The position numbers and the translations under genes were made by a program. The notes under the pieces were generated by a model, which was given only the letters and a program-made list of their open reading frames with translations, made no database searches and was not told the DNA's origin. A DNA stretch of 64,000 nucleotides from a virus (taxonomy: Duplodnaviria; Heunggongvirae; Uroviricota; Caudoviricetes), in IMG/VR virus record IMGVR_UViG_3300012667_000768. One strand, 5' to 3'. Of this stretch, positions 7,162 through 47,655 are shown one piece after another. The first letter of the stretch is position 1, and each line of letters opens with the position of its first letter.

Positions 7162-7872
7162 TTATTTTCCTTCGAGCCACTTTTTAAAGTGGGGCCGGTA
7201 TGGACGATATACGTCAACTCCATATTCTTTTAAATGATCCAGATTTCCTAGATCATACGCGTAAGCACCATCGTAATACCCGCCATATTCCTGAATATTT
7301 GGGAAATATGGTGAAGGCTCTTCGATTGGCTCAATAACATAAACCTGATAGTAGTTATACTCCTTATCAGTTACGTTACGTTTGTGTTCTAGCACGATGG
7401 CCATACAATGCCTACGAGCATGCCATACAATCTGGCCTGGCTCGAATTCTTCTCGCGCACAAGGTTCTGGAATAATTCCAGGATTGTGGTAGTCTGCTCC
7501 CACGACTTTTTGTGGAACGCCTACCCTCTCGATTACTTCTTTAACAAAAGAAGTAGAACGAAAGAGACGCTTTGAAATATCTATAATGGAATCTCCATCA
7601 AGATACCCTTCAATTACTGCTTGGATTTCAAAGGAGTTAGCTGGCTTACCCCGATTGGCAGCGCGACGACGCTGTAGCTCAGATACTTCTTCCTTATAGG
7701 TTTCAATGATCTTTGCTAGTCGCGTAGTATTATACGAAATATTAAGTATTTCGCACGCGTCCTTTTTAGAGATAGGCTTTTCAGCTTCAAGAAGCTCAAT
7801 AACCTTCTTGATATTAGCTTCGGTTAGATTCTCATGTTCCTTAGCTTTAACCTTGCCACGACCAGTAGCCAT
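7162..7872 (-). CDS. HTH DNA-binding protein, hypothetical
   Basis: 236 aa; N-terminal KKDACEILNISYNTTRLAKIIE helix-turn-helix-like segment; Shine-Dalgarno GGAGAG; own promoter. Confidence 0.5.
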   Translation of the reverse strand: MATGRGKVKAKEHENLTEANIKKVIELLEAEKPISKKDACEILNISYNTTRLAKIIETYKEEVSELQRRRAANRGKPANSFEIQAVIEGYLDGDSIIDISKRLFRSTSFVKEVIERVGVPQKVVGADYHNPGIIPEPCAREEFEPGQIVWHARRHCMAIVLEHKRNVTDKEYNYYQVYVIEPIEEPSPYFPNIQEYGGYYDGAYAYDLGNLDHLKEYGVDVYRPYRPHFKKWLEGK

Positions 7873-11045: not shown

Positions 11046-11573
11046 CAGATACTTATCCTTATCTGGCGAAGTGAAGTAGGCTGTTTCTTCCTCACGAGTC
11101 AATTTTCTATGTTGGGGAATACTCTTTTTATCCTTCCAACATACATAAGTGGTCCCGTCGAAAGGTATAGTCCAGGGTTCGATACTCATCTTATCTCCTT
11201 ATTGAAATGGCCCGTTCTGTTTCTAGGTGGAACCATACCCAATGTCTTAGTGCTTACGCAGCAAGAGCAAATGCAACGTCGTTATCGTTTGCAGTTATGT
11301 TTTGTGGCACTTTGCCAGTCAATAGTCTCGGCGTTCCTATTACTCGAAAATCGATCCTAGTTCGCCCCCATCATAGATACACTGGTGTGCTACTACGCTA
11401 AAGGATTGACCGTTACCCGATGGGAACTCGAACATTGTCCAACGGCAGTAATCCACTCCTTAGACGATGGCTGCTTCTAGGCCCACGTCCCAATGTATCT
11501 ATGGTGGAGGCGGCGGGTGCTGCCCCCGCGTCTTTCCGCTTTTATTGTCGGCTGTCAGCGACTATAGTCATCA

Positions 11574-11602
11574 GATATAACAAAAGTTACTCTGAAAGTC
11601 AA
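11574..11602 (-). promoter_or_regulatory. promoter TTGACT-N17-TATATC
   Basis: fires into the 480-bp non-coding stretch 11100-11570. Confidence 0.4.
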
Positions 11603-11605
11603 GAA

Positions 11606-12280
11606 TTATTTCTTTATTGCTATGAAATTTGCTTGGTAGTGTCTAGGCGTCATAATATTTAGTCTATTTCTAGCTTCGATTAAGTTTTCACTGAGCAGTA
11701 GATCGTAGTCCTCTGCTAGTAGAAATGACGCGTTCTTGCCCATACTATACGCTTCTATAAGAAGTTTTATATAGCTATACTTTATTCCCTTATGTAAAAG
11801 AGCTATTATTGATATTAATAACCACCCAGGAGCTTTTGTCTGAGTATAAGAGAACATGGCTAAGCACATTTCGCCAATATAAGAGGTATCGTATCCAGTA
11901 AGAGTATGCCATACGTCATGAACATCAGAATATCTTCTAGCAAGCCAGCTATAAGGATGCCTGGCTTCTATCCATTCTTTTTTGCCTTTGCGATTTAATA
12001 CTGGTAAGTAATCTTCTATATTTGGATACTGAAGGTAAGTTTCCTTTCCTACAGAACCCTCTGGCCTAGAAGATAGGTTTCTGAAATAGGTAGATACTTC
12101 TTCCGAATTGTATACTACCTCTCCGCCCTTTTTACTAGATATTAGCTTATTAAGCATACTCTTCAAAGAGTAACGATTAGTGACATATATAAGATATACA
12201 CTAAACTTAGGGTTCTCTGGATTTTTATAAAGCTTTTTACTTATTTTATACGCCGATTTAAGATCTAGTTTTGGCAGCAT
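11606..12280 (-). CDS. hypothetical protein with COQ4-like HDxxH-x11-E metal-binding motif
   Basis: 224 aa; VHDVWHTLTGYDTSYIGE matches the HDxxH-(x)11-E pattern of the COQ4 family. Confidence 0.45.
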   Translation of the reverse strand: MLPKLDLKSAYKISKKLYKNPENPKFSVYLIYVTNRYSLKSMLNKLISSKKGGEVVYNSEEVSTYFRNLSSRPEGSVGKETYLQYPNIEDYLPVLNRKGKKEWIEARHPYSWLARRYSDVHDVWHTLTGYDTSYIGEMCLAMFSYTQTKAPGWLLISIIALLHKGIKYSYIKLLIEAYSMGKNASFLLAEDYDLLLSENLIEARNRLNIMTPRHYQANFIAIKK

Positions 12281-20208: not shown

Positions 20209-20252
20209 GGGGCCGACCATCACGAAGATGATCGACCCCTACAGATGCGTGC
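20209..20252 (-). terminator. intrinsic terminator ending the tRNA locus
   Basis: GC-rich imperfect hairpin GGGGCCGACCATCA..TGATCGACCCC followed by TTTTCTTTTG on the minus strand. Confidence 0.5.
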
Positions 20253-20629
20253 CACGTTAACACGACTGCTCGTACTTTGCGAGCTGTCAACTGGTTTTTG
20301 ATTTAACTACACTTAAAACACAGTAAACAAACGCCTCGTGGTATCGTCAGAGGTTAACGCTAGTTAAAGGTGGCCTAGAACCCGACCAGTAGTCAGCTGG
20401 AACGTTTCATCGGGGCAGGCGACTACTCCTGCTGCCGTGGAAGTTTAACGCTGCTTCATCGCGACGCTTAGCGGCCCCCTTACGGTGAACCTTTCGCATA
20501 TCCCCACAGGCAAAGCCTAATTGGGGGCTAAGTTATCGACCTGTGAGATTCTCACTCACGTACCAGCCAATTAAGGGCCGGATGTTAGTCACGCTAGTAA
20601 TCTACTAGTCCACATCAAGGTCAAATCTC

Positions 20630-20703
20630 TGGAGCGGAATGCGGGAATCGAACCCGCCTCGTCAGCTTGGAAGGCTGTCATAATACCACTATACCAATCC
20701 CGC
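20630..20703 (-). tRNA. tRNA (anticodon probably UCC, Gly), CCA encoded
   Basis: reverse complement GCGGGATTGGTATAGTGGTATTATGACAGCCTTCCAAGCTGACGAGGCGGGTTCGATTCCCGCATTCCGCTCCA; 7-bp acceptor stem (one GU); T-arm GGTTCGATTCC. Confidence 0.65.
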
Positions 20704-20704
20704 G

Positions 20705-20776
20705 TACCAATGGCTAGACTCGAACTAGCGACATAAGGAATATGAGTCCTCTGTTCTACCACTGAACTACACTGGT
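20705..20776 (-). tRNA. tRNA-Met (CAU)
   Basis: reverse complement ACCAGTGTAGTTCAGTGGTAGAACAGAGGACTCATATTCCTTATGTCGCTAGTTCGAGTCTAGCCATTGGTA; anticodon loop CTCATAT; 72 nt. Confidence 0.7.
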
Positions 20777-20855
20777 GTATAAAAAGGGCCGTCCACAGGA
20801 GGTTGCAAGACACCTGCCAAACCTGTGCGTTACTGTGTTTCCAACGGAAGTTAAT

Positions 20856-20932
20856 TGGTTGCGGGGATCGGATTCGAACCGATGACCTTTAGGTTATGAG
20901 CCTAACGAGCTACCTGACTGCTCCACTCCGCG
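20856..20932 (-). tRNA. initiator-like tRNA-fMet (CAU)
   Basis: reverse complement CGCGGAGTGGAGCAGTCAGGTAGCTCGTTAGGCTCATAACCTAAAGGTCATCGGTTCGAATCCGATCCCCGCAACCA; close to E. coli tRNA-fMet, including the C1-A72 mismatch and the three G-C pairs in the anticodon stem. Confidence 0.75.
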
Positions 20933-21399
20933 TCAAATGCTATTAAAAGACACTAGTAAAGTGATAAAGGTCCAAAAAACCACGATCGCTTCTATAAATT
21001 CGGCCTTGAATGTATACTAATGTCATTTAATAGCACTCCTAAGAATGCTACGAGAAGGATGAGATTACTCCTTCTATCGGAAGTCTTTGGTCATTACCCA
21101 ATCCCTTGCGAGGATGGTTCTACCTTTATCCACCAGAACGTCTCACGACTGTTCTAGTAACTTCCAGTGCTGCTTTATTATAGTGATAGCTTTTTCACTG
21201 TCATACCATGCTACTCACTCATTATTAACCCGTCTACCTTGCGAGCAGTTCAGTTCCGCTAAGAACTTACGTTTTCACTTCGAGCGAACAAATCCAGCTT
21301 GCGACCTTCATTGCACCATCTTCTATTACTAGGATGGTATTAAGCACCTTTCACATGGCACCGAAGCGGACTTTGCGTTTTCTATATATCGTTCCATGA

Positions 21400-21472
21400 T
21401 ATACGTTATAGGATTTGAACCTATGACTCTCTAATTAATGGTTAGATGCTCTACCAACTGAGCTAAACGTAA
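21400..21472 (-). tRNA. tRNA-like gene with non-canonical anticodon loop (CCAUUAA)
   Basis: reverse complement TTACGTTTAGCTCAGTTGGTAGAGCATCTAACCATTAATTAGAGAGTCATAGGTTCAAATCCTATAACGTATA; good D- and T-arms; 1-72 mismatch; position 33 is C. Confidence 0.5.
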
Positions 21473-21933
21473 AGTTGCTAACCTACCTCGAAGTGCCACT
21501 TCCGCTGCTTCATATCCTTTTGAGATACAAAATACAACACTCCGACTGTCTTTCTCCTTGCGAGATACTAAACCATGCTTCTGGACTTTCACCCATTGCA
21601 TTGCCACTTAGCCCTTCCACGCGAATGGTCGAACACAGTGACTACCAGTTAATTGTACGCACCTCATGTTTTGGCTTGTTATGGAACAGGACGCCAATCC
21701 CTTTATCCCTCACCGACCGGCTCTGGGCATATATCCTTTCGGACCATAACAACAATCCATGCGATGATTGCCTAGCTAAATAGACAATGACACGCTTTCG
21801 GCTATAAACCGAGTCGTATCCAACGCTGGCTTGCATAGTAGGACTCTTGCGAGCGGAGGTATGTAGGAATTCCTCCGTTGGCCACATTGCTGTGGTTATC
21901 CTTTATAGAGCGCTATGCCGCTCTTGAATATCT

Positions 21934-21962
21934 TTTATAGATGATTTGACCATGAAAGTCAA
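21934..21962 (-). promoter_or_regulatory. promoter TTGACT-N17-TATAAA driving the tRNA/non-coding locus
   Basis: no ORF between it and the tRNAs. Confidence 0.55.
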
Positions 21963-22009
21963 GATCTATTTTTTGAATCCTTGGATAACTACTGAATTTC
22001 AGTATTTAT

Positions 22010-22250
22010 CAAAGGGATGGTTGTTAACGCACAACCATCCAAAGCGGGGCCGATAGGCCGATAACTGGTTTACTACTTACTCGCCTCGGTTGTCTGGCCA
22101 GACCATAGCCGATCTTATCTAGTAAGCAATGTATCCATATTCAAGAATTGTGCACGATGGAAACGAGCCAATTATCTACTAGCACGTCTTATTAGGTTCG
22201 CCTAGCTATTATCAAGAACTTTGAAGGGCATCCCGACAGGCGCTCTTGAT
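22010..22250 (-). ncRNA. candidate small RNA (promoter to hairpin, no ORF)
   Basis: minus promoter 22257-22285, then about 240 nt without an ORF, then a perfect 10-bp hairpin GGATGGTTGT/ACAACCATCC (22024-22049) followed by CTTTGAT on the minus strand. Confidence 0.3.
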
Positions 22251-22256
22251 GTAACC

Positions 22257-22285
22257 ATTATACTCATTTAAGCATTGAAAGTCAA
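22257..22285 (-). promoter_or_regulatory. promoter TTGACT-N17-TATAAT
   Basis: drives the ORF-less 22010-22250 segment. Confidence 0.55.
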
Positions 22286-47626: not shown

Positions 47627-47655
47627 TTGACTTTCGATCCTCAAACTAATATAAT
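47627..47655 (+). promoter_or_regulatory. promoter TTGACT-N17-TATAAT upstream of the HNH gene
   Basis: perfect hexamers. Confidence 0.55.

Follow-up and report, generated by a model that had tools for sequence, protein, structure and literature searches.

A non-coding RNA unit of a tailed phage with a GOLLD RNA, tRNA genes and a candidate structured 3' element

What does a phage make from a region of about 1.76 kb that lies between a promoter and a terminator and contains no credible open reading frame (ORF)? The question is raised by a minus-strand locus in a stretch of 64,000 nucleotides (nt), hereafter the window, of the IMG/VR record IMGVR_UViG_3300012667_000768, which belongs to a tailed phage, as its terminase, portal and tail-fibre genes show. 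All coordinates of the locus are given on the minus strand. An original prediction had described a promoter-to-terminator unit without credible ORF, with four tRNAs and a large structured RNA co-transcribed with them, and had proposed processed small RNAs, an intron-like element or degenerate tRNAs as its possible identity. The layout, the absence of a credible ORF and the four tRNAs were all confirmed. The core idea of a structured RNA, which judging by the promoter-terminator layout would be co-transcribed with the tRNAs, was correct as well, and most of this RNA is GOLLD, family RF02032 of Rfam. The identification of GOLLD and the operon anatomy of the locus can be given a probability of roughly 90%. 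A second structured element, separate from GOLLD, lies between the last tRNA and the terminator.

The GOLLD RNA

A covariance-model search of the locus found RF02032 at 21056-21545 with a score of 201.7 bits, above the gathering score of 150 (E = 1.9e-55), and the cmscan alignment spans model positions 1-416 of 416 and is not truncated. GOLLD relatives score 160-218 bits against the same model. The reference for the GOLLD family is Weinberg et al. 2009. In the alignment, the first hairpin of the Rfam-modelled 3' region (21487-21545, model positions 1-61) stands just before a variable linker, and the conserved 3' core (21056-21381) aligns with GOLLDs of roseophages and of IMG/VR. A sequence pattern that is invariant in the core of the window and of two roseophages retrieved 19 viral loci. 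Labels such as L003, L087, L103, L105, L106 and L116-L121 designate the fetched viral or metagenomic contigs that were compared with the window.

The Rfam model covers only the GOLLD 3' region, so that the spacer upstream of it, at 21546-21930, was expected to be the 5' domain. A domain of 378 nt lies there (21546-21923); it has 19 helices, several of them GNRA-capped, and its first hairpin, GAGCG-GCAUAG-CGCUC, begins at 21923, a few bases past the predicted transcription start. In 18 of the 19 related loci the homologue of the upstream spacer found by nhmmer directly adjoins the Rfam-defined 3' domain, and the remaining locus is cut off at its 5' end. An alignment of 15 sequences of the domain yielded 92 predicted pairs in the 19 helices, 72 of which show compensatory changes. 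Paired bases fill 95.9% of the cells of this alignment versus 36-42% in controls with slid partners, and the covariation score is 0.65 versus 0.09 in the slid controls, with none of 500 shuffles reaching the observed value. The complete GOLLD RNA is one molecule of about 872 nt, from about 21927 to 21056, formed by the Rfam 3' region and the contiguous 5' domain and including an embedded tRNA. What had been taken for two spacers, possibly processed small RNAs, with a tRNA between them is a single RNA.

The tetraloop motifs that had first drawn attention to the locus belong to this molecule. The sequence CUCGCAAG occurs five times in the window, with four copies within 750 nt of the minus strand of the locus, when about 2 would be expected in the 128 kb of both strands. 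Two copies form GCAA tetraloop hairpins of the 5' domain, one at 21846-21853 in helix 4, which covaries, the other at 21557-21564 in helix 19, at the end of the domain. A third (21238-21245) is a hairpin loop of the 3' core that is invariant across the clade, and the fourth (21105-21112) is the tetraloop of a clade-specific hairpin, an insertion relative to the Rfam model. The motif GUCGCAAG, formerly listed as a variant, lies at 21298-21305, in a tetraloop hairpin that is a conserved part of the GOLLD consensus. Each of the five (C/G)UCGCAAG motifs is a GOLLD hairpin. The prediction had thus been right in reading CUCGCAAG as stems closing GCAA tetraloops, since these C-GCAA-G hairpins are either in the Rfam consensus or covarying in the clade; the four copies and the variant exist at coordinates that differ by 2-7 nt from those first given.

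In the cryo-electron microscopy study of the GOLLD RNA env-38 by Kretsch et al. (2025), the 5' region, of about 420 nt, was described as less conserved and the 3' region as universally conserved (PMC12286853). The RNA of the window shares with GOLLD the full-length match of the 3' domain, a large structured 5' domain and a total length of more than 800 nt. In the same way, it shares the variable linker that follows the first 3'-region hairpin, the phage origin, the adjacent tRNAs and the many GNRA-capped hairpins. The comparisons establish the family membership, the domain architecture, the conserved structure, the synteny and the absence of coding potential. For the GOLLD part, the embedded tRNA, the phage context and the neighbourhood of a tRNA array are all published features of an already known family, which Rfam detects in one step.

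Two points weigh against this reading. The first is that no sequence similarity could be detected between the 5' domain of the window clade and its env-38 counterpart: an nhmmer profile built from 18 sequences of the domain gave no match to the env-38 5' region at E ≤ 10, the env-38 sequence used being 816 nt long versus 833 nt as published. Such a miss is expected because the literature describes the GOLLD 5' region as variable, and it means that the assignment of the upstream spacer as the GOLLD 5' domain rests on position, contiguity and structure, as read from the sequences. The second is that transcription, processing and cage assembly of this locus are predictions from the sequence.

The linker and its embedded tRNA

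The variable linker occupies 21382-21486, as an insert in the cmscan alignment between about model positions 61 and 118. In the published structure the linker is disordered, faces the interior of the cage and sometimes contains tRNAs (PMC12286853). It corresponds to J13/15 in the published numbering, and a tRNA-Phe is embedded there in the GOLLD of Mycolicibacterium (2026 review, PMC12990946). In the window, a tRNA-Asn(AUU) was found inside the linker at 21398-21473 by ARAGORN and by the Rfam tRNA model (62.3 bits), and it therefore stands in the same single-stranded, inward-pointing linker as the tRNA of the Mycolicibacterium GOLLD. The tRNA itself differs from that tRNA-Phe and is unusual. 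Its anticodon loop, CCAUUAA, has C33 in place of the near-universal U33, its acceptor stem has a U1-U72 mismatch and its CCA end is not encoded. The anticodon AUU places A34 in a split codon box. AAT is the preferred asparagine codon of the phage, with 380 occurrences versus 172 of AAC in 12 long ORFs.

The identity of the linker tRNA varies within the clade. A tRNA was called in the linker of 15 of the 19 distinct GOLLDs, and the identities include Arg, Lys, Glu, Met, Leu, Ile and Asn as well as two tRNAs with aberrant anticodon loops. Three of the four linkers in which no tRNA was called, those of L003, of L087 and of the L116/L117/L119 type, retain the 5' acceptor strand and a hairpin resembling a T-arm, and on this sequence evidence they are considered as tRNA relics. 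The variation extends to the strain level. Contigs that encode exactly the same neighbouring protein of 137 amino acids fall into two types: L118 does not differ from the window anywhere in the locus, whereas L116, L117 and L119 are strain-level variants that lack the linker tRNA and hold the relic only. The swaps of tRNA identity together with these strain-level relics indicate that the linker is a preferred yet dispensable site for a tRNA, and the series of swaps and relics constitutes a modest new observation.

Another arrangement was noted in L088. No tRNA was called in its GOLLD linker, at about 7610-7700, and by eye the linker resembles permuted tRNA halves, with a T-arm and an acceptor 3' strand ending in CCACCA followed by an acceptor 5' strand and a D-arm.

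The element between tRNA-Gly and the terminator

The third spacer of the locus is separate from GOLLD. The comparative alignment revealed covarying structure in it, as in the GOLLD 5' domain, and the single large RNA first imagined divides here into two unrelated elements. The core of this 3' element extends over 293 nt (20244-20536), with 13 helices predicted by RNAalifold besides the terminator, among which a 7-bp stem closes a multi-hairpin junction. Between tRNA-Gly and the core lies an accessory segment of 93 nt with three predicted hairpins (20537-20629), which is common to the window, L087 and L116-L118 and absent in L003, L103, L105 and L106. The core consequently begins after the 93-nt module in window-type copies and L087, and at most 4 nt from tRNA-Gly in the other four contigs. 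Homologues were found in L003, L087, L103, L105, L106, L116, L117 and L118, making six distinct versions with that of the window, which is identical to L118, as L116 is to L117. Every copy follows tRNA-Gly(UCC) and precedes the terminator, that is, it has the position of a trailer or 3' external transcribed spacer (3'ETS): last tRNA of the operon, element, terminator.

The structure of the 3' element is conserved across these versions. It comprises 81 pairs, with 94.2% of the cells paired versus 34-44% in slid controls, and 23 pairs are changed on both sides versus 3-7 in the slid controls; none of 500 shuffles reached the observed value. The G-U pairs are consistent with the minus strand only. 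In helix 6, three lineages have sequences unrelated to one another and the pairing is kept, the stem of the terminator covaries among the homologues, and all four substitutions that separate the strain-level variants fall at unpaired positions. Conservation of the element is mosaic: in the same contigs its 3' half is 94-98% identical, its 5' half 60-84% and the adjacent tRNA-Gly 73-76%. There is no conserved ORF in it, because insertions and deletions break the reading frame.

The distribution of the 3' element appears to be narrow. A covariance model (R1) and an nhmmer profile added no copies when run over 1.4 Mb of fetched loci, and no match was obtained in 185,579 genomes. Pattern scans of IMG/VR gave the same picture, as two of them returned only contigs that were already known, and a loosened form of one pattern led back to the same two contigs. 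A fourth pattern gave nine extra loci that were rejected, the match being restricted to a 22-nt hairpin. The additional copies came only from the metagenome scan and from the look-up of the exact protein. In most of the more distant GOLLD contigs, tRNA-Gly(UCC) is followed by ORFs of 140-227 amino acids with no counterpart of the element. In two contigs, the same tRNA is followed by a GC-rich gap (0.48-0.49) of about 340 nt with no convincing ORF (L086, 12142-12481; L083, 1-329); it has no similarity to the 3' element of the window and could be another non-coding element.

No Rfam family was found for the 3' element, whether in the window (E ≤ 1) or in three further copies (E ≤ 10), except for weak Atu_C4 hits on the last hairpin and the terminator, which reached 22-26 bits for a gathering score of 80 and were judged non-specific. 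ROOL (RF03087), like GOLLD, is a large ornate phage RNA found near tRNA arrays that forms RNA-only cages; the Rfam scan found no match to it anywhere in the window, and the 3' element is about half the size of ROOL and unrelated to it. The tRNA cluster of phage T4 also produces stable RNAs that are not tRNAs (species 1 and 2, rnaC, rnaD), have no known function and are matured by the tRNA-processing machinery. Compared by description only, these are about 120-140 nt long, versus about 290-390 nt for the 3' element. In Escherichia coli, 3'ETS-leuZ is a sponge of small RNAs of about 50 nt, released by tRNA 3' processing, which has the same position as the 3' element, after the last tRNA of the operon and before the terminator. 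It is short, whereas the 3' element is large and multi-helical.

These observations suggest that the 3' element is probably a functional structured RNA of narrow distribution. A more specific proposal, which has to be taken as tentative, is that the 293-nt core with its optional 93-nt module is the first known representative of a structured phage RNA family that has yet to be described. Such an RNA would be processed from the tRNA-Gly(UCC) trailer and have a function of its own. This function might be tied to the translation cargo of the phage (GOLLD, tRNAs and transfer-messenger RNA, tmRNA), for instance if the element were a partner or a cargo of the GOLLD cage.

Some findings speak for a less favourable view of the 3' element. 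Its minimum free energy has a z-score of only about -1, which is not significant. There are about six distinct sequences from about three lineages, and the structure that was tested was derived from the same alignment. Moreover, the 3.7-kb contig L106 has the element with no GOLLD on the contig, the region upstream of its tRNAs being protein-coding, and a functional link between GOLLD and the 3' element is therefore not established. The element could thus be a non-functional trailer of the tRNA operon or a decayed relic, which looks conserved as its few carriers are close relatives. The small number of versions, the failure to find others in the fetched loci and genomes and the weak folding energy all favour this explanation, and the documentation of the tool cautions that related sequences can exceed shuffle controls even without structure. 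However, the slid controls preserve relatedness, and the pairs changed on both sides exceed them severalfold, with the pairing of helix 6 kept across three lineages. The near-identity of the 3' half, next to a much more diverged 5' half and tRNA-Gly, argues for selection rather than recency, and in L106 the element occupies the same place beside tRNA-Gly(UCC) despite otherwise different neighbours. A trailer or relic devoid of function is for these reasons considered unlikely.

A cis-regulatory role was also considered, in which the 3' element would be a leader, riboswitch or attenuator, controlling read-through of the terminator. It does end in an intrinsic terminator, and genes of the same strand follow. 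On the other hand, the terminator is separated from the next ORF by a second conserved promoter (TTGACA-17-TAATAT, 20185-20157), which gives the downstream genes a start of their own, so that the element is not their leader. No match to a T-box, a riboswitch or a group I or II intron was obtained at E ≤ 10 in the copies from three homologous loci, no anti-terminator pairing is evident, and the 14-bp stem of the terminator is not overlapped by predicted helices. This role is very improbable.

Two further explanations concern the spacers of the locus in general. The idea that they are degenerate tRNAs or an intron-like element draws on the fact that the locus is a tRNA array, on the tRNA relics in the tRNA-less linkers of relatives and on helix 7 of the 3' element, which resembles an anticodon arm with its 7-nt loop. 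Nevertheless, the Rfam tRNA model matches none of the spacers (20253-20629, 20933-21397, 21474-21930) at E ≤ 1, nor do the intron models, group I and group II, and the homologues gave the same result at E ≤ 10. ARAGORN found the four tRNAs only, and GOLLD explains the two larger spacers completely. Degenerate tRNAs and an intron thus drop out as identities of the region, with hardly any chance of being right. Finally, that the region encodes small proteins can be dismissed almost entirely, for the mechanical ORFs of 74-102 amino acids are not conserved, and the 81-amino-acid ORF at 21642-21887, which metagenome gene callers annotated in L117 and L119, is intact in the window and L003 only, the frame of the other 13 homologues being interrupted by 3-9 in-frame stops and by length changes, with start codons lost as well and with substitutions that follow base-pair covariation.

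Operon anatomy, phage context and significance

The unit begins at a sigma-70-like promoter at 21962-21934, with a -35 hexamer TTGACT (21962-21957), a 17-nt spacer and a -10 hexamer TATAAA (21939-21934), from which a transcription start is predicted at about 21927 ± 3. The original prediction had called this promoter a consensus one; it is present at the place indicated and matches the consensus at 10 of 12 positions. The last base of its -10 hexamer is A, which is the sole cause for which the promoter scanner skipped it. The promoter sequence is identical in L003, the closest relative, and kept in L116. It belongs to a family of the form cTTGACTTTcA...TATAAT with at least eight occurrences in front of genes in the window. 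This family, with an extended -35, cTTGACTTT(c/t)A, and a TATAAT-like -10 at 17 nt, is found before genes on both strands, for example at 47627, 55919, 28934, 22285, 21962, 13087, 11602 and 6783. Inside the GOLLD 3' core, another promoter-like match (11 of 12 positions, ATGACA-16-TATAAT, 21177-21204, minus strand) has a -10 that reads TTTAAT in L003; it falls within conserved GOLLD structure and is probably a chance match.

In L116, the retained promoter and transcription start are separated from the body of GOLLD by a cassette of about 490 nt, inserted precisely at that junction (L116 7455-7832; L116 7278-7900 compared with window 21880-22010). It carries a gene whose product has matches to the Pfam families T5orf172 and MUG113, and on this arrangement GOLLD would be co-transcribed behind an mRNA in L116.

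At the other end, the unit is closed by an intrinsic terminator at 20240-20198, with a 14-bp stem at 20240-20208 containing 8 G-C pairs, followed by the U-tract TTTCTTTTGT at 20207-20198. The range of 20209-20252 proposed earlier had captured the strong hairpin and left out the U-tract. In the same way, the statement that the three spacers are GC-richer holds for two of them, with GC fractions of 0.496 and 0.474 versus 0.409 for the window, whereas the middle spacer does not differ from the window (0.409). The 293-nt core of the 3' element, inside the spacer with the highest value, has a GC fraction of 0.514.

The four minus-strand tRNAs were called by ARAGORN and score 58-68 bits with the Rfam tRNA model. 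Besides the tRNA of the linker, there are a tRNA-Met(CAU) at 20856-20932, a second tRNA-Met(CAU) at 20704-20776 and a tRNA-Gly(UCC) at 20630-20703, the CCA end of which is encoded. A spacer of 123 nt (20933-21055) separates the 3' end of GOLLD from the first tRNA-Met and was found by nhmmer to be conserved in the closest relatives only. The 79-nt spacer between the two tRNA-Met genes (20777-20855) is present in the window and L118 only. The first tRNA-Met and this 79-nt spacer are both missing from the strain variants L116 and L117, and L119 ends before that point. In related arrays, a tRNA with the anticodon CUA, called "Pyl" by ARAGORN, was observed in L087 (1834-1908) and L105 (1203-1277) and is a possible amber suppressor; in arrays of the L087/L105 type an ORF of 122 amino acids lies between this tRNA and tRNA-Gly.

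From these parts, the locus can be proposed to act as a non-coding RNA operon of a tailed phage, read from the minus strand and driven by a host-type promoter. Its transcript would contain GOLLD (about 872 nt), then tRNA-Met, tRNA-Met and tRNA-Gly(UCC), and last the structured RNA of about 290-390 nt up to the strong terminator. Within GOLLD the predicted order is a clade-specific 5' domain, a hairpin, the linker holding a tRNA and the universally conserved 3' core. By homology with the solved GOLLDs, this RNA probably self-assembles into a multimeric cage made of RNA only, in which the 5' domains would form the caps and the 3' domains the ring, with the linker and its tRNA pointing inward. 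The published GOLLDs range from 10-mers to 14-mers depending on the helices present (PMC12990946). RNase P and 3'-end processing enzymes probably excise the free-standing tRNAs, and those cuts would set the 3' end of GOLLD and free the 3' element as a trailer RNA, which the terminator hairpin would shield.

In GenBank, neither the DNA nor one protein of the structural region pointed to a close phage relative of the window. Among GenBank phages, the GOLLD core is most similar in two that infect bacteria of the Roseobacter group. The clade was seen only in viral or metagenomic contigs and in these two roseophages, and the search for a host or a prophage with the pattern of the clade gave no match in the bacterial and archaeal genomes searched. 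In the roseophages, MD18 and DSS3_MAL1, a tmRNA lies immediately downstream of GOLLD. The window also contains a tmRNA, at 11163-11606 on the minus strand, which is of the alpha-type, two-piece (permuted) and has the tag peptide ANDNDVAFALAA; this type of tmRNA suggests alphaproteobacteria as candidate hosts. Directly upstream, at about 11602, stands a promoter that belongs to the GOLLD promoter family.

A second ORF-free unit, a candidate small RNA, was noted just upstream of the GOLLD promoter, at 22005-22285 on the minus strand. Its parts are a strong promoter (TTGACT-17-TATAAT, 22285-22257), a sequence of about 240 nt and two terminal hairpins at about 22060-22010. L003 and L116-L121 have near-identical copies of this unit, and the copy of L087 has diverged. 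No Rfam match to it was found with gathering scores over the whole window, the scan at E ≤ 1 having reached only 22200.

Few natural RNAs are known to form cages that contain no protein and exceed the ribosome in size, and GOLLD is among them. The roles proposed for it in the literature include encapsulation, tRNA storage and ribosome association (PMC12286853, PMC12990946). The locus is a compact and cleanly bounded example of a GOLLD, with its own promoter, the GOLLD RNA, three tRNAs and a terminator. It also comes with natural variants, since the linker tRNA changes identity between phages and has decayed to a relic in strains with an identical neighbouring protein. This comparative evidence on the linker bears directly on the published hypotheses of tRNA storage or cargo, and assays of assembly or of RNase P protection could use the natural variants as controls. 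In parallel, the 3' element offers a small and testable candidate for a new structured phage RNA.

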